Source of the DNA: an uncultured Candidatus Saccharibacteria bacterium | Lineage (GTDB): Bacteria; Patescibacteriota; Minisyncoccia; Phycocordibacterales; CSBR16-119 | Length of the DNA stretch: 64,000 bases | Direction of reading: 5' to 3' | NCBI GenBank assembly: GCA_964557535.1 | Contig: CAZLAD010000003.1 | Location: 25,671 to 89,670, forward strand | Shown: positions 3,939-56,310 of the stretch, piece by piece | Layout: the number at the start of each line of letters is the position of its first letter | How positions within the stretch are numbered: the stretch's first letter is position 1 | The notes under the pieces: model-generated | The model's database searches: none | What the model was told of the DNA's origin: nothing | The model's input: only the letters and a program-made list of their open reading frames with translations | Position numbers and translations under genes: made by a program

Positions 3939-3970
3939 CTAGCTTGTAGTGACTAGCTTTTAGCTTATAG
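3936..3970. repeat. Copy A of a 31-nt TAG-rich repeat (TAGCTTsTAGTGACTAGyTTTTAGCTTnTAG) that begins in the PBP stop codon
   Basis: Near-identical copies at 22466-22497 and 38290-38320; see findings. Confidence 0.6.
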
Positions 3971-3978
3971 AAAGAATA

Positions 3979-4015
3979 AACAAGAAACCCCCGGACTAGC
4001 CGGGGTTTTCTTGTT
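3979..4015. terminator. Bidirectional terminator hairpin (aacaagaaaCCCCCGGACTAGCCGGGGtttcttgtt)
   Basis: GC stem flanked by complementary A/T-rich arms, between the convergent PBP and SDR genes. Confidence 0.55.
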
Positions 4016-4789
4016 TTATTTTTTTAAATTTTGTAGATAACCTCCGTCAATTGGAATCACTTGGTTTTTTATTACGTCTTGATTCGTTAACCAGTAAATA
4101 ACTTCGGCGATTTCTTCTGGTTGTAGAATTTTACTTCCTGGTGAATCTTTTAAAATTTCATGAAATTTTTCACCAAAACCGTCTCGTGCAAGTTGTGTAT
4201 CTACAAGTCCCGGAGCAACACAGTTTACTATTAACTTTTCATTATTTTTACCTATATGGGCAACAGCGCTTTCTAGGTCTTTGTGAACACGTTTTTCAAG
4301 ATTGTCTTCTAATAGAAAAGTATATAACGAACTAATTGCTAGGGCGTGTGTCGCTTCGTCTTTTTGTCCTAAAACCTCCATAATTTCTACGCCACCAAGC
4401 TTTACGTTTTCGTATTCTTGCTCATATTCCAGTGTTTTATTTTGTGAAAATATGCCAGCGCAATGAATTATTTTATTGATTTTTTCTTTTTCTAATATTT
4501 TAAGTAATTCTTCTCTACCCTCTTTTGTTGAAATATCAACTTTTATAAAACGAGTATTTTCGAGCATCGAAACAGATTTTCCCTTTTCTTCATTTCTGCC
4601 AACCACAAAGACGTCGCTTTCATTTGCAAATCTTTTTGCAGTTTCTAGACCAATGCCGGAAGTTCCTCCAAGTATTAAAATTTTGTTTTTCTTATTTTCC
4701 ATTTTTGAAAAATCTAAGTTTAATAAATTTCTCAAAAGTAGGGCCGAGACTTGCTCGGCCGCACTTCTATGTGCTGCGCTCTTAACCAC
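4016..4789 (-). CDS. Short-chain dehydrogenase/reductase (SDR) family oxidoreductase
   Basis: 257 aa. N-terminal Rossmann motif 'ILILGGTSGIGLETAKRF'; length typical of the SDR family. Confidence 0.8.
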   Translation of the reverse strand: MVKSAAHRSAAEQVSALLLRNLLNLDFSKMENKKNKILILGGTSGIGLETAKRFANESDVFVVGRNEEKGKSVSMLENTRFIKVDISTKEGREELLKILEKEKINKIIHCAGIFSQNKTLEYEQEYENVKLGGVEIMEVLGQKDEATHALAISSLYTFLLEDNLEKRVHKDLESAVAHIGKNNEKLIVNCVAPGLVDTQLARDGFGEKFHEILKDSPGSKILQPEEIAEVIYWLTNQDVIKNQVIPIDGGYLQNLKK

Positions 4790-5183
4790 GAGCCACTTTT
4801 ACTCGATCATCAATGGCGTCACCGACTTTCAGGAGAACCCACAGCATGACGTACCATACGAATGGGGCAGGTACTGCCCAGATCATTCGGGAACCGAAGA
4901 CATGGTCGCCTATGGTAGTGACAGGAATCCCTTCAAGGTGACCGAAGGCAACGATGAACATGATGCCAATCCAAGCGATCGCCAGACTCGCGAGAACTGT
5001 GCTGATACCCTGCAGGCGCTGGCTTGTAATAGCAAGGCTGGCGCCCACGAGAGAGATCCCATTCAGGCATACGACCATACCGGTCGGCATTTTCCAAGAA
5101 GGATCAGTGTAGTATTCGAGACCGAAGCCGAGAAGCACAGCGGTCAACAAGGCATACAGGCAAGGGAGGGTTGTGCGAAACAT
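4782..5183 (-). CDS. Small hypothetical membrane protein (about 4 predicted TM helices), GC-rich
   Basis: Start placed at internal Met 'MFRTTLPCLYALLTAV...' (the ORF track extends it to 5417). Hydrophobic segments throughout. The local GC is higher than in the flanks. Confidence 0.4.
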   Translation of the reverse strand: MFRTTLPCLYALLTAVLLGFGLEYYTDPSWKMPTGMVVCLNGISLVGASLAITSQRLQGISTVLASLAIAWIGIMFIVAFGHLEGIPVTTIGDHVFGSRMIWAVPAPFVWYVMLWVLLKVGDAIDDRVKVARG

Positions 5184-5391
5184 GGTGAGGGGGTTGGTTA
5201 AATTTTTGTGAATGTACAGTCCACTCTTTGAAAACTCAAACTGCTTCAAGTTCTCAAAAGTGGGGGCGAAGCGTAGCCTCGCCCACTTTGGATTGGTCGT
5301 CTCGCGACGAGCTTCAGTTTCAGGGGATCCTACTCTCCCTAACCAGAGGCTAGACTGTCTGTGACTTTGGCTAGCTTTGTTTGGGTTTTTC

Positions 5392-6471
5392 CTACGAGTC
5401 GTAGTGCCATGCCGCATCGAACACTGGTACTAGGAACTGTTTGCCAGACAATCCCCTTTTCCGTGCCATGGTGACCGCCACCGCAAATCCCGCTCTTCCA
5501 GTCCGCCCGAACTCTGCCAGCACTTCATGGTGAAAGTCATCCCATTTCACAACCCATTCACTCTTGTCCGTTGGCTTAAAGCCGACGGCATTTATGAAGT
5601 TGTTGTCAACGAAATTACTTGTCACCAGCCCCACCAAATCAAGGTGGGGTATGCAAGCTTCGAGTGCAGGAAACTGAAAAATCGGATTAGCATAGGTGGT
5701 TCCGGGCAAGTCATGTCTCGCAATAACGGCCGGGTCAGCGATTCCGAAGATTCGCTGATATTTCCCAGAGGGTTCCTCAGCCGAAACTGGGAACTTTTTT
5801 CTGTAGGCGAGAGCAGACGAAGCCACTTCAAAACCTACAACCGTTATTTCGGGAAACAACAACTTGAACCCGGTCGCCATGGGAAGCGTTGTCGTGCCAT
5901 TGCCCAGGGGACAAATGACCACATCCGGCTTGATGCCGGCCTCAACAACTTCATCGACAAAGGGCCGGAACGCATCGATCGCTGCGCCGTTGATCGTCTC
6001 CCCTCTTCCGAATATATCGCCCATTGAGTGGCCAATATACCTGGTTCCGCGATTCTTCTTTTCGGCAAGAAATCTGCGGACATATTGAGGAAATCCGTTC
6101 ACGTACGCTTCGGCCGGAGTAAGAAGTAATTCTCCTCCAGCCGCTTCGATCGCGCGTTCACGAGCCTTCTCACCCCCAGCAGGAACAGCGATCTTGATTT
6201 GGTAACCAAGCGCTGTCGCTACTGCGGCTGCGGCACGTCCACCGCTCCCAGACGTGGTTTCGAGAAGCACATCACCCGGCTTGATAATGCCGAGACACTC
6301 TTTCAAGTAGATGAGCTTCAAGAACACGCGGGAGTAGTGGCACTCACCATATGGCAACTTGTAGTCGAGCTTGAAATGGTAGGTGTTACCTTCAAACTCG
6401 ATCGTTGTCACGGGAGAGTTGCGCACTTCGGTGAACATGTTCTCGTAGAGGTGTTTGCGATTCTGGTTCAT
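5392..6471 (-). CDS. Pyridoxal-phosphate-dependent enzyme, fold type II (cysteine synthase / tryptophan synthase beta superfamily)
   Basis: 359 aa. 'ETTSGSGGRAAAAVATALGYQIKIAVP' resembles the CysK-family nucleotide-binding stretch, and there is a glycine-rich 'GNGTTT' loop. GC-rich with G/C-ending codons. Confidence 0.7.
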   Translation of the reverse strand: MNQNRKHLYENMFTEVRNSPVTTIEFEGNTYHFKLDYKLPYGECHYSRVFLKLIYLKECLGIIKPGDVLLETTSGSGGRAAAAVATALGYQIKIAVPAGGEKARERAIEAAGGELLLTPAEAYVNGFPQYVRRFLAEKKNRGTRYIGHSMGDIFGRGETINGAAIDAFRPFVDEVVEAGIKPDVVICPLGNGTTTLPMATGFKLLFPEITVVGFEVASSALAYRKKFPVSAEEPSGKYQRIFGIADPAVIARHDLPGTTYANPIFQFPALEACIPHLDLVGLVTSNFVDNNFINAVGFKPTDKSEWVVKWDDFHHEVLAEFGRTGRAGFAVAVTMARKRGLSGKQFLVPVFDAAWHYDS

Positions 6472-6651
6472 GGTGGTTATGGTTTATGTGTTGGGCCCAA
6501 TCACACAAACCGACAACCTTTTCTGAAACTGCATTTTTCGAAGATCAAATTTCTAGACATATCATAACAGGTTTTGTCAAACTTGTCAATTTATATTTTA
6601 TATTTTGCAATAAAATCGCCGTAAAGACCTTATTTTATAAGTATAAAATAC

Positions 6652-6683
6652 TGTTGACAAACACTTTACAACTTTGCTAAAAT
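6652..6683 (+). promoter_or_regulatory. Sigma70-like promoter (TTGACA-18-TAAAAT) ending 6 nt before the TrmB start codon; likely a leaderless mRNA
   Basis: Hexamers read directly from the sequence. A direct repeat TTGTCAAAC-TTGTCAA lies upstream at 6570-6586. Confidence 0.4.
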
Positions 6684-6689
6684 TTCAGA

Positions 6690-7445
6690 ATGGAAGAGAA
6701 GTTAAAACAACTAGGTCTGTCGGATAAAGAGATAAAGGTTTATCTGTGTGTTCTAGAAAACACCAAAATCACCCCCGCCCTCATAGCCCGCAAAACAGGC
6801 GTTACTCGCCCAACTGCTTATGGAGTGGGTAAATCTTTGGTAGAAAAGGGTTTTATTGAGGCTGACGAGCTAAGCCCGACTTTATACTTCGTTGCCCTAC
6901 CTCCGGAAAATATCGAGAAAATTATCAAAAAGGAAAAATTAGAAATTGAAGAAAAACTAAAAAACATACAGTCTCTAGTTTCTGAGCTTTCTTTGGTTCC
7001 AAAATCTAAAAACTACTCAATCCCAAAGGTTAAATTTATCGATGAAACACGCTTCGAAGAATTTATGTACGAAAGAGCGCCTATTTGGAATAAATCAGGT
7101 CTTGCGGGAGACGCGACGTGGTGGGGTTTCCAAGATCACAGCTTGTTAGAACAATATCCTAATTGGTTTAAATGGTATTTTGAATTTTCTGCAGGGAAAA
7201 TAAAATCAAACCTTATTACAAACGACGAAGAAAAACAAAAAATGGGAGAAGTTTTGCATGAAAAATATGAAAGGGTTGCAAAATATTGGAACGGTGATGT
7301 CGGCGTGACTTATTCTGTCTTGGGAGATTTTGTTTTTATAGCAAACACTCAATCAAAACCACACTATATTGTAGAAATAAACGACGCGGTTATCGCAGAA
7401 AATATGAGAAATATTTTCAAAGGTTTTTGGAAAATGCTTCCTTAA
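6690..7445 (+). CDS. TrmB-family transcriptional regulator (N-terminal wHTH)
   Basis: N-terminus 'LGLSDKEIKVYLCVLENTKITPALIARKTGVTRPTAYGVGKSLVEKGFI' matches the TrmB HTH architecture. Confidence 0.7.
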   Translation: MEEKLKQLGLSDKEIKVYLCVLENTKITPALIARKTGVTRPTAYGVGKSLVEKGFIEADELSPTLYFVALPPENIEKIIKKEKLEIEEKLKNIQSLVSELSLVPKSKNYSIPKVKFIDETRFEEFMYERAPIWNKSGLAGDATWWGFQDHSLLEQYPNWFKWYFEFSAGKIKSNLITNDEEKQKMGEVLHEKYERVAKYWNGDVGVTYSVLGDFVFIANTQSKPHYIVEINDAVIAENMRNIFKGFWKMLP

Positions 7446-7702
7446 AAAATATCTTTAATTCCTTTTTCCGGGAAGGCCTCTCGAAGTTTTTTGAGAATAC
7501 TCTCTTTATGAAGGTTTATTTCTGTTTTGGTGTACGGATCGGTTTTTAGATGTATATTTTGGTTTCGGTAAGAAATTTCTTCTTTTTTTAGAAAGGTTTT
7601 TGTTTCAGTAAAAACTATTTCAATAATTTTTTCTTTAAACCTTTCTTCACCCAAAAGCTTGTCTTTGAACGCTTCGAGAAAATTTCCAAGACTAAGTGTC
7701 AT
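7442..7702 (-). CDS. Small DUF721-like protein downstream of dnaN
   Basis: 86 aa, immediately downstream of dnaN (3-nt gap). Position and size are typical of DUF721/DciA-like proteins. Sequence similarity is weak. Confidence 0.4.
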   Translation of the reverse strand: MTLSLGNFLEAFKDKLLGEERFKEKIIEIVFTETKTFLKKEEISYRNQNIHLKTDPYTKTEINLHKESILKKLREAFPEKGIKDIF

Positions 7703-7704
7703 TT

Positions 7705-8805
7705 TTATCTATTCATCGGCATTATTAGATAGAGAAAGCTTTTATCGCCATTACCTTTTATAACCATTGGACGATTTACTTCGTTCATTTCGAGGACAAC
7801 CGAATCTTCATTGATCGACTGGAAGCAATCTAAAATATATTTATGATTTAGGTTCATCTCTATCGCCTCACCCTCAAAAGCGCCGTCGACAAGTGTTTTG
7901 TTCTCGCCAACATCTTTGTTGAGGGCATAGACTTCAAGTTTTTTCGCTTTTGGATCGACTTTTATTTTTATCTGATTAAATTTATCCGAAAAAATATTTG
8001 CCAAACGAATTGATTCAATAAAATCTTTTTTTAGAAGGATTGCGCGAGTTTTGTATTCCTTTGGCACGATTTGACGATAGTCCGGAAACGATCCATTTAT
8101 AAGTCTAGAGGTTAAATAAAATCCTTGTAAAACAAAAGAAATTTGATTTTTATTATAATAAATTTTCATTTCACCTTTTACGTCCGACAATAATTTGATT
8201 ATCTCTAAAATATTTTTGAATGGAATAATCAAACCTTCTACGTCAGTTGGTTTTTTGGTCTTTATACTTTTTTCTGCTAAACGAAAAGAGTCTGTGGAAA
8301 CGAAAAACAGTTGGTTTTCGTTTGAATAAATATAAACACTTGCAATCTCTGGTTTTATGTCACTGACCGCCGAACTATAAAAAACGGCTTTTATTCCCTC
8401 TATAAATTTTTCAATCTCTATTTCAAAAGAATTTCCTTCTACTGTTGGAATAATCGGAAAATCTTCTGAGGAAATACTTTTTATCGTTACTGATGTTTTT
8501 TTATTGTTCAGGAAAAGGTTTTCTTCGATTTTTTCCATTTTTACAACTTTTTCGGAAGCACCTAAATTCATCAAGGTATTACTTATAACCTCTCCTGTAA
8601 CTACAACCTCTCCTTCTTTTTCTATTTTGGCAGGCAATTCAATCTCAAGTCCAAGAGAAAGGTTGGTTGAACGAATTTTTAAACTATTTCCAGAGGCAAT
8701 AAACAAGATAGACTTTAAACTCTCTAGACTAGAAGTCTTTCCCACGATTTTATCCGCTTTACTTACAGCCTCTCTTAGTTTATCTGTTGAACATTCTATC
8801 TTCAT
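7705..8805 (-). CDS. dnaN: DNA polymerase III beta subunit (sliding clamp)
   Basis: 366 aa with a three-domain clamp pattern, directly downstream of dnaA in the conserved dnaA-dnaN arrangement. Confidence 0.9.
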   Translation of the reverse strand: MKIECSTDKLREAVSKADKIVGKTSSLESLKSILFIASGNSLKIRSTNLSLGLEIELPAKIEKEGEVVVTGEVISNTLMNLGASEKVVKMEKIEENLFLNNKKTSVTIKSISSEDFPIIPTVEGNSFEIEIEKFIEGIKAVFYSSAVSDIKPEIASVYIYSNENQLFFVSTDSFRLAEKSIKTKKPTDVEGLIIPFKNILEIIKLLSDVKGEMKIYYNKNQISFVLQGFYLTSRLINGSFPDYRQIVPKEYKTRAILLKKDFIESIRLANIFSDKFNQIKIKVDPKAKKLEVYALNKDVGENKTLVDGAFEGEAIEMNLNHKYILDCFQSINEDSVVLEMNEVNRPMVIKGNGDKSFLYLIMPMNR

Positions 8806-9039
8806 ATATTTATTTACATCTTTATTCTATATAAAACCTACTATTACTATTAACCCTGTTGATAATGTGTAAAAGTCCGGAATATATTTACTGTTAACGT
8901 TTTTTTACTAAAATCAGTCGTGTAAAACCCTCTAACTTGTCTGAATTAATTTTTAATTTTTTGATCTCATTACTTAATTCAAAAACTTATTATTTTTTCT
9001 CCGCTATATATCCCCTGTTATTTACACATCTTATTAACA

Positions 9040-10395
9040 CTATTTAAACATAACTCGAATTTGTTCAAGGTCGCGGACAAGTTTTTGATCGGATTTTAGG
9101 TCGTTTTTAATTTTAAGACATGAGTGAATAACGGTCGTATGGTCTTTTCCACCAAGTTTCTGCCCTATTAAAGGATAAGAAATATTAAAATCCTCTCGGA
9201 GAATATACATAATTAGTTGGCGCGCACGAACAATTTCTTTTCTACGAGTTTTTTCGTAAATATTATCCTCTTCCACTTCATAAAACTCACTTATTGTCTT
9301 CACAACGTTTTGAATAGAGACGTTTTTACCGGGCTTAATGTTGTTTTTTATAAGTTTTTTGACTTCTATTACAGATAAATCTCGTTTTTTGAGCTGAATT
9401 TGGCAAATTACAGTATTTAGACTTCCTTCAAGTTCTCGGATAGATCCAGAAATAGAGGTGGCGATGTATTCGATAACCTCAGGTGATAAAGAAAGACCGT
9501 TTTCGTCCAATTTAGAGCGAATTATGGCCGTTCTCGACTCAATATCAGGCTCTGTGATATCAACTATCATTCCTTGAGCGAAACGAGTTCGTAGGCGGTC
9601 TTCTAGGCCTATTATTTGGTTGGGGTGTTTGTCTGAGGAGAAGATAATTTGCTTCTGATTCTCGTGAAGCGTGTTAAATAGGTGAAAAAGCTCTTCCTGA
9701 GTCTTTTCTTTGTTGGAAATAAACTGAACGTCGTCCATGATCAAGACGTCGTATTTACGATATTTTTGTTTAAATTCGTTTGGTTTGTTGTTTCGAAGAG
9801 AATTTACATAGTCGATGGCAAACTTCTCGAGAGGAATATAGTGAATTTGTTTGTTTGGAAATTTATCCTTAATCGCGTTTCCTATTGCTTGGATAAGGTG
9901 GGTTTTTCCGAGCCCTGTTGGACCATAGATAAAGAAAGGATTGTAGTTGTGGCCAGGGTTTTTGATTATTGATTGGGCGGCCGCGTGGGCAAGTTCGTTA
10001 AAAGATCCAACGATAAAAGAATCAAACGTGTAGCGAGGGTTTAGGTTGTCTTTCCTATCGACATAGAGGTTTTTTAGAGGGAGCTCGCCGACAACAAAGC
10101 CTTCGTTTTGGCTGATTTGCCCATCCTCAGGCTTTTTACTACTAGAAAGTTTTGCGATAACAAACTCCACACTACGAATGCCTTCAGAATAGTTTCGAAG
10201 AAGTCCTAAAATAGCGGTTTTGTGTTTGGTATTTAGCCAATCACGGACGAATTCGTTTGGTACAGAGATGTAAGCGGTACCGTTTTCTTGTTTTACTAAA
10301 TTTGTGTTTTTAAACCAGGTGACAAAGTTGGCTCGAGAGAGAGTCGATTCAATCTCATCCAAACAGCTTTCCCAAATTTGTTTATTATCAACCAT
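9040..10395 (-). CDS. dnaA: Chromosomal replication initiator DnaA
   Basis: 451 aa. Walker A 'GPTGLGKTHL', AAA+ core, and a C-terminal DnaA-box-binding helix region '...DHTTVIHS...'. Confidence 0.95.
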   Translation of the reverse strand: MVDNKQIWESCLDEIESTLSRANFVTWFKNTNLVKQENGTAYISVPNEFVRDWLNTKHKTAILGLLRNYSEGIRSVEFVIAKLSSSKKPEDGQISQNEGFVVGELPLKNLYVDRKDNLNPRYTFDSFIVGSFNELAHAAAQSIIKNPGHNYNPFFIYGPTGLGKTHLIQAIGNAIKDKFPNKQIHYIPLEKFAIDYVNSLRNNKPNEFKQKYRKYDVLIMDDVQFISNKEKTQEELFHLFNTLHENQKQIIFSSDKHPNQIIGLEDRLRTRFAQGMIVDITEPDIESRTAIIRSKLDENGLSLSPEVIEYIATSISGSIRELEGSLNTVICQIQLKKRDLSVIEVKKLIKNNIKPGKNVSIQNVVKTISEFYEVEEDNIYEKTRRKEIVRARQLIMYILREDFNISYPLIGQKLGGKDHTTVIHSCLKIKNDLKSDQKLVRDLEQIRVMFK

Positions 10396-10621
10396 GGTTT
10401 TTAAATTCTTGGCTAAAGACTAATGTTCGTTATTATAATTTATTTTTGTAATGTGTGGATAATTCAAAAATTGTGTACAACCTGTGAATTACTGTGGAAA
10501 AGTCGAAGGTTCTGAGGAGCTCGAAGGATGTGTGGAGAATTATACACGACTAATATTTTTCCGCGCAATATTTTCGCACCACACATTGATTTATTTTTAT
10601 GTCTAGTGTATACTTCCCCAC
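10396..10621. promoter_or_regulatory. Putative oriC / dnaA promoter region with a cluster of DnaA boxes
   Basis: Perfect TTATCCACA (complement of tgtggataa at 10454-10462). Near-consensus boxes follow: tgtgtacaa, tgtggaaaa, tgtggagaa, ccacacatt, ccccacatg. The region is AT-rich and lies between divergent dnaA and rpmH. A further TTATCAACA-like box sits at about 8857 in the dnaN-dnaA spacer. Confidence 0.7.
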
Positions 10622-10783
10622 ATGTCACGAACATATAATCCAAAAAAGAAAAAAAGAGCCAAGACTCATGGTTTCAGAGCTCGTTCCAAGACGACCTCAG
10701 GCAAAAAGGTTCTCCTTGCCCGCCGTCGCAAAGGACGCAAGAAGTTGACCATTTCTAAACCTCGCGTTAAGTCAGCCAAATAA
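10622..10783 (+). CDS. rpmH: 50S ribosomal protein L34
   Basis: 53 aa, '[53 protein letters not shown]'. Not in the ORF track because it is under 60 aa. Classical position upstream of rnpA. Confidence 0.85.
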
Positions 10784-10790
10784 TATTCTA

Positions 10791-11120
10791 ATGATCCCGA
10801 AGACTAATAGGATAAATCGGGAAGATTTCGAGAAAGTAATGAAAAAAGGCGGGTTTTTGAACTCGTCTTTTTTCACACTTAGATTCCTTAAAAATCCAAT
10901 AAATTCAACACATTTTAGTATTGTGGTGGCGAAAAAAGTCGCCAAAACCGCGGTTTTGAGGAATAAAATTCGAAGACGAGGTTACTCAATACTTAAAAAA
11001 TCCGAAAAAACATTGAAAAATAAGGGTTTTTTGATACTTTTTGCAAAAAAAGGTGTCGAAAAGGCTACTTTTAAAGCGGTTGAGGCAGATATTCTTAAAT
11101 TACTTGAAAAACTAAAATGA
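10791..11120 (+). CDS. rnpA: Ribonuclease P protein component
   Basis: 109 aa, basic, follows rpmH. Conserved RnpA-like 'F..V.K......AV.RN..RR' pattern. Confidence 0.85.
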
Positions 11121-11338
11121 AGTACTTATTTTTAGGGCTTATTTGGCTCTATCAACACACCTTTTCCCCTCTTTTCCGTCTCTTTAGGGTAAATTGCCGG
11201 TTTTACCCAACTTGTTCACACTATACCCGCGAAGCCTTTGAAAAACATGGATTTTTAAAGGGTTTTTGGCTTTCCGCCCGGCGAATTTCCAGATGTCACC
11301 CTTGGGGCGGATCTGGAATTGATGAGGTTCCGAAATAA
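11117..11338 (+). CDS. yidD: Membrane protein insertion efficiency factor YidD
   Basis: 73 aa. '[46 protein letters not shown]' is the YidD signature. Its start overlaps the rnpA stop (ATGA). Confidence 0.85.
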
Positions 11339-11374
11339 TTTTGAAATTAAGGGTTTTTAAGATAGAATCGAGAA

Positions 11375-12130
11375 ATGTTTAATACTATTTTCGTCGAGCC
11401 TTTATATAACACCCTTGTTTTTCTGGTAAATGTTGTGCCGTGGCACGACGTCGGTATTGCCATAATTGTTCTAACTATACTGGTTAAGCTTATTTTGGCC
11501 CCATTGCACGCCAAAGCCATCCGTGGGCAATTTCAAATGAAGGCCCTCGAGCCAAAGATTCGAGAAATCAAGAAAAATTATCCCGACAAACAAGAGCAGG
11601 CTAAAAAAACTTTTGAACTCTACAAAGAATACAAAATCTCTCCCCTCGCCGGATGTTTACCGATCCTTATCCAACTCCCAATCATTTTGGCTCTTTATCG
11701 AGTTTTCTTGGGCGGATTTAATTTTGACGCGACACCACTATATGGATTTATAAATCAACCAGAACAAGTAAAACTTTTGTTTCTTGGTATCCAAGACCTG
11801 ACACAAAAATCAATCATCTTTGCCATTCTTGCTGGAGCAACACAGTATCTACAAGTTCACTTTTCTGCCGCCAGAAATCCAGTCAACGTCGATCCAAACG
11901 ATACATCAATGGCGGCTAACATGACCAAGATGATGGGTAAGCAAATGAAATATTTTTTACCAGTATTTGTGGCGATCATTTCGTATCAAATTTCCGCCGC
12001 CATCGCGCTTTATTGGGCAGTCAACAACATTTTCACTACGGTTCAGGAATATTTAATTCACAAGAAAATGATCAAGCGTGGCCAGGTCACCGAGATTAAA
12101 AATTCCTTCGACCCCGCTTTGAATAAATAA
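11375..12130 (+). CDS. yidC: YidC/Oxa1-family membrane protein insertase (short Gram-positive/CPR type)
   Basis: 251 aa, multi-TM, in the conserved rnpA-yidD-yidC-jag synteny. Confidence 0.85.
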   Translation: MFNTIFVEPLYNTLVFLVNVVPWHDVGIAIIVLTILVKLILAPLHAKAIRGQFQMKALEPKIREIKKNYPDKQEQAKKTFELYKEYKISPLAGCLPILIQLPIILALYRVFLGGFNFDATPLYGFINQPEQVKLLFLGIQDLTQKSIIFAILAGATQYLQVHFSAARNPVNVDPNDTSMAANMTKMMGKQMKYFLPVFVAIISYQISAAIALYWAVNNIFTTVQEYLIHKKMIKRGQVTEIKNSFDPALNK

Positions 12131-12133
12131 AAT

Positions 12134-12592
12134 ATGAATGAAACTGATCTCAAAAATTTAATCCAAGAATTCCTCGAGAAAACCAGTTTCAGCTTCGTGG
12201 ATATCGATGTTTCTCTCGATATGGATGATGGATCTTATTGGATCGCTGTTAGAACGAATGACTCACGGCATTTGATTGGTCAAAACGGCGAAATGATTCA
12301 GACAATCAACCACTTGTTCAAAAGAATACTCGAGGCTCGTCACAAAGAGAACACCCCACGCGTAACAGTAGACATAAACGGTTACCAGAAAGAGCACATC
12401 AATAAAATAAAAACCACCGCGCACATGATGGCCGAACGCGCACGATTTTTCAAAAGTAAAATCGAGCTTGAGCCGATGAATCCATACGAGCGCCGGATTG
12501 TGCACGATTTTGTCTCTAAACATCCAGACCTTACCTCCGAATCAACTGGCACCGGCCCAACCAGACGCGTAGTTATTTTCTACAAACACTAG
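12134..12592 (+). CDS. jag: Jag/KhpB-like RNA-binding protein (KH + R3H domains)
   Basis: 152 aa. C-terminal R3H-like 'RRIVHDFVSKHPDLTSESTGTGPTRRVVI'. Immediately follows yidC. Confidence 0.8.
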   Translation: MNETDLKNLIQEFLEKTSFSFVDIDVSLDMDDGSYWIAVRTNDSRHLIGQNGEMIQTINHLFKRILEARHKENTPRVTVDINGYQKEHINKIKTTAHMMAERARFFKSKIELEPMNPYERRIVHDFVSKHPDLTSESTGTGPTRRVVIFYKH

Positions 12593-12635
12593 AATAGTTT
12601 TTTGTTTTGCGACCCTTAAAAATCTCCGCACTAAA

Positions 12636-12745
12636 AACAAGATGTTTTGCCTTAAAAGTCCGTTCTGTTTGAGGAGTGTCTAAACACTCCGAGTTAACGG
12701 ATCTTTTTGGCTTAAAACATCTTGTTTTTAGGCTAGATTTTTTCT
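12636..12745 (+). terminator. Long interrupted hairpin (about 35-bp stem with an internal hairpin), followed by a T-run; candidate terminator of the rpmH-jag operon
   Basis: 5' arm CTAAAAACAAGATGTTTTGCCTTAAAAGTCCGTT and 3' arm AACGGATCTTTTTGGCTTAAAACATCTTGTTTTTAG, with a central hairpin GGAGTGTctaaaCACTCC, then ..gattttttct. The 450-bp jag-rny spacer is unusually long for this genome. Confidence 0.5.
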
Positions 12746-13041
12746 GGGTCAAAGGAGTTTTTGGTTACTTTTTTCTCCGTAAAAAAGTAATGGGTTGGCC
12801 TTTAAAAGAAATGTTTTGAGTTACCATTTGGGAACGTGGCCATAACCAAACCCTTTCTCATTAGACACAGGCTCCCTATTTCTGCTATATTAAAGATACC
12901 GAAATTTAATAATTTTTAGTTGAAAATCGCTTTAAATCGCTTGTTTTACACCAAAATATGTTTTTAAGAAGTTTAAAATCAGAGAGGTATCACTTAACAC
13001 GGCCATAAAACAGGCTACTAAAAGGCGATTTTAAAAATCGC

Positions 13042-14562
13042 ATGAACACAATAATTTTTGCAGTCATCGGACTTCTTGTGGGTGCGGGTGTTGGATATTA
13101 CCTACGAATGGTTGTCGCGCTTGCCAAACAGGGTTCGATGGAGCTCGATATCAAAGAGCAAATGCTCTCCGCCAAAGAAGAAGCACAAAAAATCTTGGCT
13201 GAGGCCACCAAAAAGGCCGAAGACAAGATTAGAGAAATGGAAGCCGAAGAAAAAAGTCGCCTCGAAGACGTGAAAAAAGCCGAAGATCGCGTAATCAAAA
13301 AAGAAGATACTCTTGAGGCCAAAGATCGCGAACTTCAAAAGCACGCCGACGAGTTAAATAAAAAAATCGAAGAAGTAAATAAGATAAAACTCGAAGTCGA
13401 AGAAAAGAAATTAGGGCTTGAGTCCGAACTCGAAAAGATTTCTGGACTTTCTCGTGAAGAAGCCCGCGAACAACTGTTCAAAGAGATCGAAGCCCGCTCA
13501 GAAGAAGATGTTTTGGTGCGCATGCAGAAACTAGAGAATGCTTCCAAAGAAAAGCTCGATTTGCGCGCGCGTGAGATACTTGCCTCCTCTATTCAGCGTA
13601 TGGCAAATGAGGGCGTGAGTGAATTTATGGCTACGACCGTCACTATTCCAAACGACGAAATCAAAGGAAAAATAATTGGTAAAGAGGGACGAAATATTCG
13701 TGCATTTGAACGCGCGGCCGGAGTCGAAGTCATTGTTGATGATACTCCAGGTGTTATTACCATCTCATCATTTGATCCAGTGCGAAGACAAGTTGCGCGC
13801 ATTGCTCTTGAGAATCTAATTCTCGACGGCAGAATTCAACCAGCGAAAATCGAAGAGATGGTTGAGAAAGCCAAAGAAGACATCAATAAAATCATCAAGC
13901 AAAAAGGCGAAGAAGCAGTTTACGAATGCGGAATATTCAATCTTGATCCGCGCGTCATTGCTATCCTCGGGCGACTTCATTTCCGCACAAGTTATGGGCA
14001 GAATGTTCTCGCACACTCCGTAGAAATGGCTCACGTTGGTGGAATTATCGCGGCCGAGATTGGCGCGGATGTCGCCGTGACCAAGGCCGGATGTTTGGTT
14101 CATGACATCGGCAAAGCCCTGACTCATGAGGTTCAAGGCACACACGTAGAAATCGGTATGCGTATCCTTCAGAAGTTTGGCACCGATCAGCGCATCATTG
14201 ACGCGATGAAATCTCACCACGAAGAATTTCCTTACGAAACAGTCGAGTCTCATATCGTCCAGACGGCTGACGCCATCTCTGGTGGTCGCCCAGGAGCACG
14301 CTCTGATACGGCCGAGAATTACCTAAAGCGCCTGACAGAACTAGAAACCCTCATCGATTCATTTGATGGCGTTGAAAAGTCTTATGCTATTGCTGCGGGT
14401 CGCGAAGTCCGAGTGTTTGTAAACCCAGACAACATAACAGATATGCAATCAGCCGATCTGTCTCGAGACATTGCCAAATCCATTGAGCAGGAACTTAAAT
14501 ATCCAGGAGAAATCAAGGTTATCGTTATACGCGAGAAACGAATAGTTTCTTATGCGAGGTAG
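13042..14562 (+). CDS. rny: Ribonuclease Y
   Basis: 506 aa. N-terminal TM, coiled-coil, KH domain ('IIGKEGRNIRAFERAAGVEVIVDD') and HD domain ('HSVEMAHV...VHDIGKA'). Confidence 0.9.
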   Translation: MNTIIFAVIGLLVGAGVGYYLRMVVALAKQGSMELDIKEQMLSAKEEAQKILAEATKKAEDKIREMEAEEKSRLEDVKKAEDRVIKKEDTLEAKDRELQKHADELNKKIEEVNKIKLEVEEKKLGLESELEKISGLSREEAREQLFKEIEARSEEDVLVRMQKLENASKEKLDLRAREILASSIQRMANEGVSEFMATTVTIPNDEIKGKIIGKEGRNIRAFERAAGVEVIVDDTPGVITISSFDPVRRQVARIALENLILDGRIQPAKIEEMVEKAKEDINKIIKQKGEEAVYECGIFNLDPRVIAILGRLHFRTSYGQNVLAHSVEMAHVGGIIAAEIGADVAVTKAGCLVHDIGKALTHEVQGTHVEIGMRILQKFGTDQRIIDAMKSHHEEFPYETVESHIVQTADAISGGRPGARSDTAENYLKRLTELETLIDSFDGVEKSYAIAAGREVRVFVNPDNITDMQSADLSRDIAKSIEQELKYPGEIKVIVIREKRIVSYAR

Positions 14563-14565
14563 TAA

Positions 14566-14758
14566 TACGCTCCGCAAAAACCTCCTTTTCCTTACCCTCC
14601 GGGATCGCTTCGCTAGGTCCTCGGGTTCGTAAAAGGAGGTTTTTGCTACGCTGAAAATCTATTTCCAAGCAGAGCAAAACATACATTTCTGTTTTTGAGG
14701 ACCTAGTGCAAAGACGCGCTCCCACAGAAAACAGAAATGTATGTTTTGCGGAGTGGCG
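14566..14758. ncRNA. Two tandem copies, in opposite orientations, of a conserved 80-nt hairpin element (copy 1a at 14573-14648 and copy 1b at 14672-14753), nested in an outer GCTCCGCAAAA / TTTTGCGGAG stem
   Basis: Long perfect stems (16 bp and 22 bp) enclose loops with the conserved core GAGGACCTAG(T/C)GCAAAGACGCG. Homologous elements lie at 54956-55030 and 56229-56310; the stems differ between copies while the loop is conserved. Confidence 0.5.
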
Positions 14759-14858
14759 CTTGCGTCAAAAAACCCTTGCGATATAATGGTTTCAGACATA
14801 AATCGTTTTCGGGCGACATTATCAACCTAATTCTACGTACTACTTTCTACGTACTACG

Positions 14859-15141
14859 TACTAAAATTATGAATAAAGCAGCATTGGTAGAAAATGTTCA
14901 TGGCATGCTTGGTGGAACCAAAACTCAAGCCGAGCAGGTCGTTGATGGAATCTTTGATGCCATCACAGGAGAGATGAAGAAAGGCAGCGAAGTTTCAATC
15001 TCTGGATTTGGAATCTTCTCAGCCAAGATGAGAAAAGCTCGCACGGCGCGAAATCCTCGAACTGGCGAATCCGTATCTGTTCCGGCCCAGAAGGTGCCAA
15101 AATTCCGAGCTTCAAAAGCTTTGAAGGACGCGCTCAAATAA
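14859..15141 (+). CDS. hup: HU-family nucleoid-associated DNA-binding protein
   Basis: 94 aa. 'MNKAALVENVHGMLGGTKTQAEQVVDGIFDAI...FGIFSAKMRKARTARNPRTGESVSVPAQKVPKFRASKALKDAL' is the canonical HU/IHF fold signature. The N-terminal extension in the ORF track is rejected. Confidence 0.85.
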
Positions 15142-15170
15142 TCGAAAAATTTTATAGATTCTATAAACCA

Positions 15171-15198
15171 CAAAAACCCCGCGAGGGGTTTTTGTGTT
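15171..15198 (+). terminator. Rho-independent terminator (aaaaaCCCCGCGAGGGGtttttgtgtt)
   Basis: GC hairpin plus a T-run directly after hup. Confidence 0.7.
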
Positions 15199-15207
15199 AA
15201 AAACGAA

Positions 15208-15384
15208 TCACCCCGAACTTGTCGGGGTGTCGTCCTTCGGTGGTATCTGGAAACCTTTGACCACTATGGGACCAGAAGGATTCCCTTTGTCCAGGAACAT
15301 TTCTTCCGTCTTGCGATTGATGAGTTTGTAGATCTCTTTCAAATCGCTCTCCGAAATTCCTGTCCTCTTAGAAACATTCTTCAT
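15208..15384 (-). CDS. Small hypothetical protein with a possible HTH ('SKRTGISESDLKEIYKLINRK'); N-terminus uncertain
   Basis: The ORF runs to 15621 but its 5' part overlaps tRNA-Gly and its promoter, so an internal start (Met at 15384 or an upstream GTG) is assumed. Confidence 0.25.
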   Translation of the reverse strand: MKNVSKRTGISESDLKEIYKLINRKTEEMFLDKGNPSGPIVVKGFQIPPKDDTPTSSG

Positions 15385-15584
15385 GTTCTTGGTGAAAGCG
15401 ATAAGGGACTGTAAGTGTCCTCTGTCGCCTACCCAATAGATCGTCAGGACTCCGAGCTTTTTCAGGAGCTCGTCTTCTTTGTTGTCTGGCACGGGCTCGT
15501 GAATTTGTTTGTAGATTACGCTTAAAAATATTTTTGTCAACAAGATGTAGACGCGAGAAACAATTCGTGTATAATATCCAAATC

Positions 15585-15655
15585 GCGGGATTAGTTTATC
15601 GGTAAAACAACAGTTTTCCAAACTGTGGTGAGGAGTTCGACTCTCCTATCCCGCA
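15585..15655 (+). tRNA. tRNA-Gly (anticodon TCC)
   Basis: Manual cloverleaf: acceptor GCGGGAT/ATCCCGC, D-stem GTTT/AAAC, anticodon stem ACAGT/ACTGT with loop TTTCCAA, T-arm AGGAG-TTCGACT-CTCCT, discriminator A. No encoded CCA. TATAAT at 15571-15576. Confidence 0.8.
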
Positions 15656-15888: not shown

Positions 15889-15961
15889 CGGGGCGTGGTG
15901 TAACGGCTAACATGTCTGTTTTGGGAACAGATGACTCCGGGTTCGAATCCCGGCGCCCCGA
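15889..15961 (+). tRNA. tRNA-Pro (anticodon TGG)
   Basis: Acceptor CGGGGCG/CGCCCCG, anticodon stem TCTGT/ACAGA with loop TTTGGGA, T-arm CCGGG-TTCGAAT-CCCGG, discriminator A. TATAAT at 15869-15874. Confidence 0.8.
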
Positions 15962-16023
15962 CTCTCTAAAGCAAATAAAATCTATTGTCCGGAGCCTAAA
16001 TGGCTCCGAGGCCCGAAGGGAGA

Positions 16024-16053
16024 GACTCCGGGTTCGAATCCCGGCGCCCCGAC
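16024..16053 (+). repeat. 30-nt direct copy of the tRNA-Pro 3' end (gactccgggttcgaatcccggcgccccgac), 63 nt downstream of the gene
   Basis: Identical to 15932-15961. Lacks a 5' acceptor partner, so it is not a complete tRNA. Confidence 0.55.
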
Positions 16054-17779: not shown

Positions 17780-17856
17780 GCGACCCCGACTCGGCGACAA
17801 GCACTCGTTTCGCTCGTCTTGTATACCGCCTCCGTCTTTCGATTCTCTTATCGCGG
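17780..17856. repeat. Copy 1 of a 70-nt tRNA-linked repeat (GCGACCCCGACTCGGCGACAAGCACTCGTTTCGCTCGTCTTGTATACCGCCTCCGTCTTTCGATTC...)
   Basis: About 95% identical to 18143-18210. Ends in a degenerate inverted copy of the tRNA-Gly(GCC) 3' end. Confidence 0.6.
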
Positions 17857-17905
17857 TAAAACACAAAGGCCCCAACGCTAACGCGTCAGGACATTGTGTT
17901 TTATG

Positions 17906-17976: not shown

Positions 17977-18142
17977 AAATGAGAAGTGAAATAAGAATAG
18001 CACATGTTCTTATTTCCTTCGAATTCTGCGATTATATGAGGTTTACGCTCTTATACTCGCAAAATTGCCTTTTTAGATTAACATATCTTGACCAGGTCCA
18101 CTAGAGGGATTCGGTCACAGCTCTTTTGCTTCGCAAAAGGCC

Positions 18143-18220
18143 GCGACCCCGACTCAGCGACAAGCACTCGCTTCGCTCGTCTTGTATACCGCCTCCGTCT
18201 TTCGAATCCCTCTGGGTGCA
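18143..18220. repeat. Copy 2 of the 70-nt tRNA-linked repeat; its last 20 nt (TTCGAATCCCTCTGGGTGCA) are an inverted copy of the tRNA-Arg 3' end 50 nt away
   Basis: Forms a 21-bp perfect inverted repeat with 18269-18290. Confidence 0.6.
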
Positions 18221-18268
18221 AAAACAATAATCATGAAAAGCTAGCGCTTTCCATTCCTTTGTTTTTTG

Positions 18269-18340
18269 TGCACCCAGAGGGATTCGAACCCCCAATAACG
18301 GTTCCGAAGACCGTTGTGATATCCATTTCACCATGGGTGC
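18269..18340 (-). tRNA. tRNA-Arg (anticodon TCG)
   Basis: Reverse complement: acceptor GCACCCA/TGGGTGC, D-stem GTGA/TCAC, anticodon stem ACGGT/ACCGT with loop CTTCGGA, T-loop TTCGAAT. Confidence 0.8.
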
Positions 18341-21662: not shown

Positions 21663-22466
21663 TTATAGATCAACTTCTATTGAAATCGGGCAGTGATCTG
21701 ATCCGTAAATTTCTGAATGCGTCGTGAATTTTTTTATATTTTTCAAAATATTTAGCGAAGCGAAGAAGTAGTCAATACGCCAGCCGACGTTGCGCTCGCG
21801 CGCGGCGGATTTTTGATCCCAGTACGTGTAGACATCTTTTTTCGTTGGATTGAAATTTCTAAACACGTCGACGTAGCCGTCAGCGATAACTTCGTCTACC
21901 CATGCGCGTTCTTCGGGTAAAAATCCAACATGCGTTTCATTTTCTTTTGGTCTGGCGATATCAATTTCTGTATGTGCGACGTTCACATCACCGGTGAAAA
22001 TTATTCTCCTTGTCCCGCCGGAGCCTTTGGCGGAGGGGGATTGCCCTTCCTTACTTAATTTATTTACGTATTTCAAAAACGCGTCATAGAACTCGAGTTT
22101 GTATTCTAAACGTTCCGGCGCACCACCACCGTTGGGGAAGTAGCAGTTAATCAAGACGAAATCTTTGAAATGCGCCGTGACTGTCCGGCCCTCGTCGTCA
22201 TCGCCTGGCATGTCGATACCATACGTGACTTTTTCTGGCGGGACTTTGGTATAGATGGCTACACCACTATAACCTTTCTTTACTTTAGAACTAGAGAAAT
22301 ATGATGTGTATCCTTTTGGCTTCAAAATTTCATCGGAAAGTTGAGATGGCTCGGCTTTGGTTTCCTGGAGACATAGAATGTCGGGTTTCAAAGCCAAAAT
22401 TTCGGCAAAAGCGCCTTTTTTAAAATTCGCCCGGATGCCGTTTACGTTCCAACTAATGATTCGCAT
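21663..22466 (-). CDS. xth: Exodeoxyribonuclease III (AP endonuclease, EEP family)
   Basis: 267 aa. 'MRIISWNVNGIRA...LCLQETK' and a C-terminal 'GSDHCP' motif. Confidence 0.9.
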   Translation of the reverse strand: MRIISWNVNGIRANFKKGAFAEILALKPDILCLQETKAEPSQLSDEILKPKGYTSYFSSSKVKKGYSGVAIYTKVPPEKVTYGIDMPGDDDEGRTVTAHFKDFVLINCYFPNGGGAPERLEYKLEFYDAFLKYVNKLSKEGQSPSAKGSGGTRRIIFTGDVNVAHTEIDIARPKENETHVGFLPEERAWVDEVIADGYVDVFRNFNPTKKDVYTYWDQKSAARERNVGWRIDYFFASLNILKNIKKFTTHSEIYGSDHCPISIEVDL

Positions 22467-22497
22467 AGCTTCTAGTGACTAGTTTTTAGCTTCTAGC
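22466..22497. repeat. Copy B of the 31-nt TAG-rich repeat; abuts the xth start codon
   Basis: TAGCTTCTAGTGACTAGTTTTTAGCTTCTAG. Confidence 0.6.
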
Positions 22498-22626
22498 TTT
22501 ATGGATTATACAAGAAAAATTATTGCAAAATAAAGGTTTTAATGGCTTGACAATAGTAACTATATATGCTACTATTCAAATCGACAATCCTGTCACTCAA
22601 CCAGTTCCACCAAAACCAAAACCGTC

Positions 22627-24447: not shown

Positions 24448-24562
24448 AACGAGCCAATTGCTTGGCTTATGTGAGGGAGAGAAAGGCGCAGAAATATTTT
24501 TGTTTTGCGAAGCAAAGGCAAAAATGCCGAGCTGGGGCCACCCAATATGTTAGAATATTTCC

Positions 24563-37854: not shown

Positions 37855-38292
37855 ATGATTGATAAAATTGATTATTCAATTATTCATTTTTTCCGACGAG
37901 CTTTCTTGCCATCCGCGAGAATTGGATTATTTGTCGTCTTTTTTTGGTTTGGAATTTTAAAAGTTATTGGATTGTCACCAGCAAGTGGGGTAGTTCAAAG
38001 ACTTTTTGAAAACACAATTCCATTTATGAACTTCACGACATTTTTAGTTCTATTTGGACTATTTGAGTGTTTGATTGGAATTTTGTTTCTCGTCAAAGGC
38101 GCGGAGCGTATCGTTATCCCGCTTCTTTTCATTCACATGATTACCACATTTGGCCCGCTCGTTTATTTGCCGTCTGAAACATGGCAGAAATTTATGGTGC
38201 CAACACTCGAGGGTCAATACATCATCAAAAACGTTGTGCTCATCGCGGCCACTATCGGCATCGCGGCGCATTTGCATCCGATGAAGAAGTAG
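37855..38292 (+). CDS. Hypothetical integral membrane protein (about 4 TM helices)
   Basis: 145 aa, hydrophobic. Its stop codon is the first TAG of repeat copy C. Confidence 0.4.
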   Translation: MIDKIDYSIIHFFRRAFLPSARIGLFVVFFWFGILKVIGLSPASGVVQRLFENTIPFMNFTTFLVLFGLFECLIGILFLVKGAERIVIPLLFIHMITTFGPLVYLPSETWQKFMVPTLEGQYIIKNVVLIAATIGIAAHLHPMKK

Positions 38293-38320
38293 CTTCTAGT
38301 GACTAGCTTTTAGCTTGTAG
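38290..38320. repeat. Copy C of the 31-nt TAG-rich repeat (TAGCTTCTAGTGACTAGCTTTTAGCTTGTAG)
   Basis: Followed by the terminator AAGGCCCCGCttgtcGCGGGGCCTT at 38329-38353. Confidence 0.6.
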
Positions 38321-38374
38321 GAAAAGCAAGGCCCCGCTTGTCGCGGGGCCTTGGCGCTCCAGGTGCTGTCCGGA

Positions 38375-40454: not shown

Positions 40455-40554
40455 TAATTTATAAGTTTTAAACACTTTTACACATTGACAATATCTTATT
40501 GTGTTTTTTTACTTTATAATAAACTCATTAAAACTTTATAATTATTATCATTGT

Positions 40555-55030: not shown

Positions 55031-55190
55031 CTCCGCTTTAAGAATCATCTCCAAGCGGAGCAAATATATCTCTTTGAAAAGGCTCGCCGGAGGATTTTTG
55101 TTTACAAAAAAATCCGAGGCGGAAGAAAATCCGCCCTTTTGAAGGAGCGGATTATTCTGGTCTTTTTGAAGAGGTCTATTTGCGGAGCGT

Positions 55191-56215: not shown

Positions 56216-56228
56216 CTCATCCCCCAAG

Positions 56229-56310
56229 CAAAACAAAACACAAAATTTCATTTACGAGGACCTGGTGCGTAGACACGATTCGACAGGAAATGAAATTTGT
56301 GTTTTGTGGA
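56229..56310 (+). ncRNA. Copy 3 of the conserved 80-nt hairpin element, directly after the M50 gene
   Basis: Stem CAAAACACAAAATTTCATTT / AAATGAAATTTGTGTTTTG. Loop ACGAGGACCTGGTGCGTAGACACGATTCGACAGG. Confidence 0.5.

Follow-up and report, generated by a model that had tools for sequence, protein, structure and literature searches.

A putative family of palindromic repeats on a shared chassis at gene ends of an uncultured Candidatus Saccharibacteria bacterium

Elements with IS200/IS605-type ends and the palindrome-associated transposable elements (PATEs) move by HUH single-strand transposition, while some MITEs (miniature transposable elements with inverted repeats), for example Correia/NEMIS, RUP and ERIC, serve as terminators or as substrates of RNase III. 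The attC sites of integrons carry R''/R' sites of the form RYYYAAC / GTTRRRY and lie in cassette arrays beside intI. On the level of DNA structure, d(GXA)/d(GYA) is known as a sheared G·A 'zipper' motif. GCGNAGC is the consensus of an extraordinarily stable DNA mini-hairpin (PMC13037366). In Candidate Phyla Radiation (CPR) bacteria, tandem interspaced guide RNA (TIGR) stem-loops form tandem arrays beside tas genes with a Nop domain, and two variable spacers lie between their box C/D-like motifs (PMC12045711). The closest match to the elements of this study is found among repetitive extragenic palindromic (REP) sequences, bacterial interspersed mosaic elements (BIMEs) and REP doublets forming hairpins (REPINs; PMC3116915, PMC3337134). 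Here we describe hairpin elements in a 64-kb stretch of the genome of an uncultured Candidatus Saccharibacteria bacterium (contig CAZLAD010000003.1; the whole stretch is called the window below), in which an initial annotation had listed four hairpins around a conserved loop.

All copies are palindromic and extragenic, with six elements in 64 kb. We give about even chances to the reading that they constitute a lineage-specific family of non-coding REP/MITE-like palindromic repeats which are built on one chassis and occupy terminator positions. The family is larger than the four hairpins and is best filed as a REP/MITE-type element, not as a small RNA (sRNA). As far as searches of Rfam and the literature reach, it is previously undescribed: at the gathering score Rfam returned six tRNAs only over the window, the best models at E<=10 over 14540-14790 were snoRNA/miRNA models with 22-27 bits against thresholds of 48-90, and full-text literature searches on Saccharibacteria, Patescibacteria and CPR turned up no such intergenic repeats.

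Chassis and interiors of the elements

Read on the strand that carries GAGGAC (the G strand; its complement is the R strand), the chassis has the form GCGNAGC-AAAA-variable stem-interior-stem'-TTTT-GCGNAGC, and the elements are 83-150 nt long. According to RNAalifold and our own pair counts, the two GCGNAGC direct repeats pair antiparallel, with G-C and C-G followed by a 3x3 GNA/GNA loop, G-C, C-G and then the A4/U4 step. This outer helix covaries, as G-C is replaced by A-U in L061 and L214 and C-G by U-A in L053 (numbers with L denote loci of relatives), while the G and A of the GNA/GNA loop are essentially invariant. At each end 11 nt are conserved (GCGNAGCAAAA / TTTTGCGNAGC), of which 9 are complementary, and the mismatches are systematic, G/A against T/C. 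The variable stem spans 12-20 bp and its sequence is copy-specific.

Interiors fall into T1 (the GAGGAC... core), T2 and T3 (cassettes with ordinary bidirectional terminators) and other sequences. A script written for this bracket recovered the four hairpins, here units A to D, and in addition a fifth window element at 55055-55188 (+). Together with a diverged member near 12624-12734, the window holds at least six related elements. In the following list, the extent of a unit runs from its left 7-mer flank through its right one, and bit scores refer to the model R1.

14569-14651, (-) strand: unit A, T1 with the short apex GCGAAGC (GAA triloop), 85 bits
14652-14668, no strand: linker between the divergent pair A/B, TGAAAATCTATTTCCAA
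14669-14754, (+) strand: unit B, T1 with a 23-bp perfect stem, 95 bits
54951-55036, (-) strand: unit C, T1, 91 bits
55037-55054, no strand: linker that forms, with the adjacent 7-mers, a hairpin GCTCCGCTT...AAGCGGAGC
55055-55188, (+) strand: T2 element, chassis GCGGAGC-AAATA...TATTT-GCGGAGC around two inner hairpins
56223-56312, (+) strand: unit D, T1 between the M50 protease gene and the promoter that follows it, 84.5 bits
about 12624-12734, (-) strand: T1-related long hairpin 3' of khpB/jag and upstream of the rny promoter, 21.8 bits, E=0.007

The four hairpins stand as real, since a degenerate core (GAGGACMTRGYGCRWAGACRCG) matches B, C and D with 0 mismatches where 0 matches are expected from 100 dinucleotide shuffles, and since the fold z-scores against shuffled sequence range from -2.8 to -6.9 across units A-D. 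Their boundaries lie 2-6 nt from those first assigned. The whole rny locus, where two hairpins and a small linker hairpin are enclosed by an outer helix, reaches z = -8.8; the GCUCCGC/GCGGAG helix that had been predicted around this pair is present in the fold. The two linkers, 14652-14668 and 55037-55054, are similar to each other. The flanks read GCGTAGC / GCGGAGC for unit A (on the (-) strand) and GCAGAGC / GCGGAGT for unit B, whereas unit D has a degenerate left 7-mer, CCCAAGC, beside GTGGAGC on the right, and a stem related to those of C and L216. The T2 element combines perfect GCGGAGC flanks and a long stem with a 100-nt interior of two hairpins which, read on the (-) strand, are canonical terminators for rpmB. 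The diverged member has 18-bp perfect arms (12631-12648/12714-12731), a predicted fold of -52 kcal/mol and the apex GGAGUG-UUUAGA-CACUCC, which corresponds to the P2 and P3 helices of the T1 core without the internal loop; it retains one flank only (CTCCGC on the (+) strand).

Other parts of the initial annotation need qualification. The four copies it listed are correct, but the flanking GCGNAGC direct repeats and at least two further window members were overlooked. The loop core it assigned to all four is intact in B, C and D, whereas A keeps both core ends with an apex that is 6 nt shorter (GAGGACCTAGCGAAGCGATCCCGG). Perfect stems in every copy were likewise claimed too broadly, since the stem of C is broken by one C·U and two A·C mismatches and an internal loop interrupts A as well as L053 and L088, in addition to the degenerate left flank of D. 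The supposed loop of about 30 nt is itself structured, with the helices GGA/UYC and GYG/CRC inside, the second of which covaries. The argument that changing yet still paired stems signal a selected structure is borne out by strong covariation. The picture of a conserved loop on variable stems is incomplete, as at the M50 site the stem is kept and the interior differs.

The T1 interior follows the consensus GA / GGA / CMUA / GYG / apical loop / CRC / GM / UYC / SRSA / G across 13 aligned copies, 11 of them non-redundant. GGA/UYC is nearly invariant, while GYG/CRC (P3) occurs with U-A five times, C-G four times and G-C and U-G once each. The apical loop is YNNAGA in its long form and a GAA triloop (GCGAAGC) in its short form, the latter being found in A, the right unit of L053 and L126; in L214 it is a 35-nt insert. 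In total, 96.4% of the alignment cells are paired and 21 of the 28 pairs show double changes, which was equalled by 0 of 500 shuffles, and sliding the pairing partner by 1-3 columns as a control left 38-55% paired. Given paralogous copies and an alignment that had been fitted to the model, this covariation shows that hairpin potential is maintained, not whether it is maintained at the RNA or the DNA level. Pairwise identity averages 0.76-0.80 for the core, 0.69-0.77 for the flanks and 0.45-0.50 for the stems, and the unpaired core residues GA, CMUA, GM and SRSA are conserved. Inspected by eye, neither K-turn, loop E, tetraloop receptor nor hammerhead fits the core, and a likeness to the sarcin-ricin loop comes down to a 7-nt match, GAGGACC, that is within chance.

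The interiors are exchangeable between sites. The T2 interior of 55055-55188 is homologous to that of L212 9693-9825, which is a non-orthologous site (rpmB versus khpB). T3, a GUAAACA-loop hairpin plus terminator, is found in L211, L218 and L219 and thus also at non-orthologous loci (rny versus MBL-rpmB).

GCGNAGC occurs 36 times in the window, where 17 ± 4 are expected. A role as DNA-uptake sequence was considered and rejected, because the motif, although enriched, stays below the density of uptake sequences and much of the excess stems from the elements themselves. Besides the elements, a hairpin capped by GCGAAGC (GAA triloop, C-G closed) lies at 24490-24530 (ATTTTTGTTTT-GCGAAGC-AAAGGCAAAAAT), and a second such cap, CTTTTGC-GAA-GCAAAAG on the (-) strand, at 18120-18140. 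This suggests that the genome has a general liking for the GCGAAGC cap.

Gene-end position and turnover among relatives

Most elements begin 1-7 nt past stop codons, namely those of rny, the MBL-fold gene and rpmB in the window, of both genes in L053 and in L061, and of genes in L211, L212 and L219, while L088 and L214 carry their copies in 5' or divergent spacers. Unit A starts 6 nt past the rny stop, so that the rny mRNA would hold its complement. Unit C starts 6 nt past the stop of the MBL-fold (ComEC C-terminal-like) gene, again in R orientation relative to that gene, and the rpmB stop codon is 2 nt from the T2 element. Beyond the end of unit B, the -35 box of the HU promoter follows after about 9 nt; another promoter stands directly after D.

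Doublets are divergent with respect to the G strand in five of five cases (A/B, C/T2, L053, L061, L211), and consequently a transcript from either side first copies the R strand. Of 9 independent loci, 8 have their gene-proximal element in R orientation (one-sided binomial ~0.02), with unit D at the M50 site as the only gene-proximal copy in G orientation. The earlier statement that each sense copy lies just 3' of a gene on its own strand holds literally for D only: between B and rny stands A, and between C and rpmB stands the 134-nt element, while C itself abuts the oppositely oriented MBL-fold gene. By our own reading, the G-type flanks of the distant L133 and L138 are on the same strand as the open reading frame (ORF) that ends just upstream.

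A scan for classical terminators (GC-rich stem, 3-8-nt loop, at least 5 U in 8) found no other terminator after rny, the MBL-fold gene or M50. The same scan detected one classic terminator inside T2 on the rpmB strand, and the two units of L053 are separated by a canonical terminator. Linker promoters as independent features were considered and dismissed, as the -10-like hexamers change from locus to locus. At ~7400-12600, the clusters dnaN-dnaA (-) and rpmH-rnpA-yidC-jag/khpB (+) point away from each other, so that the replication origin probably lies at ~10.4-10.6 kb, 2-4 kb from the elements of the rny locus. A replication-strand bias was rejected, since three window elements are on the (+) and three on the (-) strand, on one side of dnaA.

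Graded relatives were fetched with RNase Y and the MBL-fold protein as handles. The initial annotation had suggested a covariance model and an Rfam check; the models R1 and R2 yield further copies in the window and in related genomes, and Rfam no matching family. R1 and R2 recover 11 distinct T1 copies at 45-102 bits (window lineage plus two metagenome-assembled genomes (MAGs); 0.27 Mb of the close clade) and none in 80 metagenome loci (0.94 Mb in total) with RNase Y at 57-76% identity. A strict bracket scan gave 10 matches in 0.25 Mb of the close clade versus 1 in 0.94 Mb of distant relatives. In the clade, GNA/GNA is the commonest 3x3 loop at the bases of long hairpins; in the distant set only two or three such cases occur (L133, L138, L151). 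Judged by these sequences, the family is young and narrow and the clamp motif sporadic further out.

A loose core pattern matched at least 117 loci on genome contigs, nearly all of them by chance in high-GC genomes. The true copies among the matches listed are L053 and L061, both with doublets and from one MAG named 'uncultured Candidatus Saccharibacteria', and L088 from another; L031 was discarded as it looks like a chance match inside a gene. The strict core pattern gave 0 matches against metagenome contigs, and viral contigs, searched with the T1 long core, the T1 short core and the T2 hairpin, gave only four chance matches in GC-rich coding DNA. The exact RNase Y protein of the window is present in two contigs, one from Logan with 100% identity to window 12761-15614 and one from ENA (ERZ4208449 NODE_16; 223,756 bp) that is 97-98% identical to the window. 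Near-identical strains differ by 0-3 substitutions per unit (L122/L124 97-98%; L209/L210 99.8-99.9%).

Among less close relatives the same spacers are occupied differently. The rny-HU spacer holds the T1 pair in the window and its strains, two likewise arranged brackets around larger and quite dissimilar interiors in L211 (Rny 91% identical), a single T1 in L126 (89%), whose core has diverged and whose lower stem is GC-rich and unrelated, a bracket-like hairpin without the core in L125 (89%), and plain terminators in L128 and L214 (84-85%). The khpB-rny spacer is filled in L212, which reads ...TTTAAAA-GCTTCGC-[T2 element]-GCTCCGC-TTTACC..., and carries a single 7-mer and no element in L211 (...TTTAAAAATAC-GCTCCGC-TTACC...). 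Between the MBL-fold gene and rpmB, the window has C and T2, L217 a plain bidirectional terminator, L216 likewise a plain one next to rpmB with two extra genes intervening, and L218 and L219 a T3 bracket, which in L219 follows an intervening gene of 900 aa and not the MBL-fold gene. The M50 site is filled in the window (T1, unit D) and in L216 (related stem, other interior), is reduced to a collapsed copy, GCCGAGC-AAAAGATAAAATTATGTTTT-GCGAAGC, in L218, and holds no element in L217 and L219. Orthologous sites thus show insertion polymorphism (L212 versus L211 at khpB-rny, and the M50 site), which may reflect gain or loss. Since stems can stay while interiors change, and the reverse, the elements behave as a modular repeat or mobile family and not as a conserved RNA gene.

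Extra genes without informative Pfam domains occupy the same spacers in relatives, and insertions in general seem to favor these positions at gene ends.

L126 7944-9760: extra genes of 277 and 287 aa
L216 10988-15191: extra genes of 616 and 755 aa, the latter with DUF5122
L219 10914-13616: extra gene of 900 aa

The window contains further repeats and variable regions. A 34-nt repeat (TAGCTTCTAGTGACTAGCTTTTAGCTTNTAG) occurs at 3940-3973, 22466-22499 and 38290-38323 with 82-91% identity. It is packed with TAG/TGA stops in several frames, its copy at 38290 overlaps the stop of ORF 37855-38292, and a plain terminator hairpin follows both this copy and the one at 3940; the repeat resembles a multi-frame stop cassette and constitutes a family of its own. 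Just past its copy at 3940 begins a strain-variable island, as 4010-7442 (3.4 kb) is replaced by ~1.4 kb in L122 (2993-4401). The 3' end of tRNA-Pro is duplicated over exactly 30 nt (15933-15962 and 16024-16053) around a 61-nt insert with a small hairpin; the BLAST alignment to L122 (97-98% identical) breaks at this duplication, which suggests a single copy there, and an integration or excision at the tRNA could have left the duplication as its scar. A direct repeat of ~105 nt (17780-17884 and 18143-18247; 80% identical) lies immediately 3' of tRNA-Gly(gcc) and tRNA-Arg(tcg), both on the (-) strand, and an inverted copy of the 3' half of tRNA-Arg adjoins that gene (18201-18230 against 18259-18288); ARAGORN found no extra tRNA in this region. 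Two long ORFs probably encode large surface proteins: 40501-48453 (2650 aa), with fn3 and beta-helix domains in the homologues of relatives, and 58563-61898 (1111 aa) with glycine-rich repeats of the GGAGGCGGCGG type, where relatives have a Gly_rich_2 protein at the corresponding position.

Folding strand and competing explanations

In the T1 helices, 13 G·U wobbles on the G strand stand against 3 A·C oppositions, which would be wobbles on the R strand (two-sided probability ~0.02), with the reservation that the alignment leans slightly towards the model in this count; 2 of the 3 R-strand wobbles sit in unit C, the sole unit that folds better on the complementary strand. The G strand is more stable in 12 of 17 elements, and its advantage amounts to 6-18 kcal/mol in the right unit of L053, in L126, L214, the T2 and T3 elements, L211b and L216. 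Moreover, the conserved G·A oppositions of the clamp are pyrimidine mismatches on the opposite strand. The GCGNAGC mini-hairpin consensus appears at both flanks and at the short apex, and covariation of the outer helix supports the putative flank pairing. By our own reading, RNA-type loops of the GNRA or UUCG kind (GCGA, GAAA, UUCG) cap several of the plain terminators in the window. Since the G strand is usually not the mRNA strand, and since terminators lie between the units of L053 and inside T2 and T3, a purely RNA-level role of the chassis is unlikely. We infer that the chassis would fold as single-stranded DNA, by analogy with REP sequences and their REP-associated tyrosine transposases (RAYTs) or with IS200/IS605.

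Mobile DNA that folds as a single strand is more likely than a small-RNA gene. The option of a REP/MITE-like repeat, one of several offered by the initial annotation, is favored by the narrow clade, by the filled, empty and collapsed states of orthologous sites, and by one chassis with unrelated interiors. Its sRNA or 3'-UTR (untranslated region) option fares worse: of 9 independent loci, 8 present the copy nearest the gene in antisense to the GAGGAC strand, linkers of 17-34 nt are too short for conserved promoters, and two interior types hold terminators that would halt transcription before the 3' arm of the outer stem. One might envision that the elements spread or turn over as DNA, being, or having been, moved or exchanged by a putative enzyme. 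The conserved termini and the T1 core would then be the determinants seen by this enzyme or by a host protein, probably on single-stranded DNA, and selection would keep the T1 core as recognition site. Since transcription in either direction gives a long hairpin followed by UUUU, or carries a terminator, the host would tolerate or even use the elements, which could act as terminators or 3'-end protectors between transcription units.

Several observations weigh against a REP/MITE-like family. The T1 core is better conserved than the stems, for which this reading gives no account. Pfam reveals no transposase, RAYT, integrase or Nop/Tas gene in the window, and phmmer together with the HUH...Y motif gave no RAYT-like ORF in 288 kb of clade loci, a weak test, run on partial genomes. 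In the same partial genomes no pair of chassis ends encloses an ORF, and no related autonomous insertion sequence (IS) was seen. True target-site duplications are absent, since the flanking 7-mers represent the same motif at every locus and differ mainly at N, and the flanks show no further duplication. Pairing between the partners of a doublet, as in REPINs, is absent, and identity among the copies of one genome reaches only ~50-75%, so that there is no sign of a recent burst. The empty sites are accounted for just as well by deletion between the direct repeats as by absence of insertion. The orientation rule may lack generality, given the small sample and three bracket hairpins of distant relatives that may not follow it. 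Finally, T1 fails a simple terminator scan, which finds none at units A-D.

If the elements instead were cis-acting structured RNA modules in 3' UTRs, serving as platform for a protein or RNase or as stabilizer against 3' exonucleases with the T1 core as functional site, their location at gene ends, the strong covariation including the small P3 helix, the conserved unpaired core residues and the better preservation of core over stems would all be expected. We nevertheless regard this as unlikely. At 8 of 9 independent loci, the strand with the wobbles and G·A motifs runs antisense to its neighboring gene, the terminator between the units of L053 implies that the G-strand form would rarely be transcribed, and in T2 and T3 the interior terminators stand upstream of the 3' arm. 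The very narrow distribution, the turnover at orthologous sites and the lack of an Rfam relative argue in the same direction, as do GNA triloops and GNA/GNA loops, which are DNA-favored motifs (PMC13037366). Similarly unlikely is that they are locally evolved, unusually long bidirectional intrinsic terminators which are not mobile and share features via constraint or gene conversion. Units do stand where relatives have plain terminators, rny, the MBL-fold gene and M50 have no other one, and A4...U4 steps flank the stem in both orientations with promoters directly after. However, T1 fails the classic criteria for a terminator, with an interior of 30-45 nt, AT-rich stems and only four U, and L126 even has no U tract. 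Constraint alone does not account for the same asymmetric 30-nt core and GNA/GNA clamp at unrelated loci in different genomes, nor do homologous T2 and T3 cassettes at non-orthologous loci or the copies of L088 and L214 in 5' or divergent spacers fit a local origin.

Arrays of guide-RNA-like units or recombination sites, such as TIGR stem-loops, integron attC or CRISPR-like repeats, are very improbable. The attC sites also conserve structure above sequence. Variable palindromic stems around short conserved motifs superficially recall the TIGR arrays of CPR bacteria (PMC12045711), but the elements are dispersed after housekeeping genes without forming tandem arrays, conserve the interior where arrays have variable spacers, have no Nop/Tas, integrase or Cas gene in the window, and end in GCAAAAC/GTTTTGC, unlike RYYYAAC/GTTRRRY. 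Returning to mobile DNA, a bolder version is that a new kind of small mobile element exists in CPR, a GNA/GNA-clamped bracket that folds as a single strand, often capped by GCGAAGC, with terminator cassettes or the T1 module as exchangeable cargo and moved or exchanged by a probably HUH-like or host-encoded enzyme that reads the folded G strand, T1 being its recognition site or a new protein-binding fold. We consider this tentative and rather doubtful.

Dense, structured repeats with fast turnover in the small, gene-dense genomes of CPR/Patescibacteria would mark ongoing genome dynamics of these episymbionts, and the family gives a way to study how very compact genomes insulate their transcription units. 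For annotation, it is a warning that such hairpins should be taken neither for sRNA genes nor for ordinary terminators. If the G·A-clamped chassis is indeed read as single-stranded DNA, this would point to an unrecognized mobilization or recombination activity in the lineage. The T1 core, with ~30 conserved nt and two small helices, is a candidate protein-binding motif and, together with the GNA/GNA clamp and the orientation rule, the part most worth experiment.

Comparison with known systems

With REP, BIME and REPIN sequences the elements share their nature as short, non-coding and lineage-specific palindromes which are confined to spacers outside genes, at gene ends, and frequently form inverted doublets joined by a short linker. 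A strand-asymmetric hairpin, a conserved purine-rich foot motif (GNAG here, GTAG in REPs of E. coli) and a presumed action as single-stranded DNA are common to both. In contrast to the 20-40 nt of REPs, units here measure 83-150 nt, three times as much, the foot motif flanks the unit on either side in the form of direct repeats with G·A pairing, the interior is exchangeable, and the sequence examined yielded no RAYT. Partners of a doublet have unrelated stems and sometimes different interior types, while those of REPINs are near-identical and pair.

Like the Correia/NEMIS, RUP and ERIC MITEs (PMC10969869), the elements are non-autonomous, intergenic and comparable in size (~100-150 bp), give long hairpins when transcribed and show presence/absence polymorphism between relatives. 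MITEs, however, possess conserved terminal inverted repeats and random target-site duplications, whereas here 11 conserved nt per end are combined with a copy-specific stem, no target-site duplication and no known parent IS.

TIGR-Tas was rejected as a counterpart, since units here are single or paired and dispersed, the interior is conserved and the window has no Nop-domain gene. Integron attC was rejected too, because the ends GCAAAAC / GTTTTGC are off consensus and neither an array nor an integrase is present.

IS200/IS605 elements resemble the brackets in that the structure would be recognized on one strand only, the same short motif occurs on the same strand at both boundaries, and an 'empty' site keeps one motif. 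They differ in having two separate subterminal hairpins instead of one long-range bracket and in being mobilized by TnpA, which was not found in the sequence examined; the window elements also lack a replication-strand bias, with three on either strand. As for DNA structure, the paired flanks would give a GNA/GNA loop of the kind known from the G·A zipper. The 7-mer flanks and the short-apex GCGAAGC match the d(GCGNAGC) mini-hairpin consensus (PMC13037366) exactly. Mini-hairpin and zipper are motifs of physical chemistry and not genetic elements.

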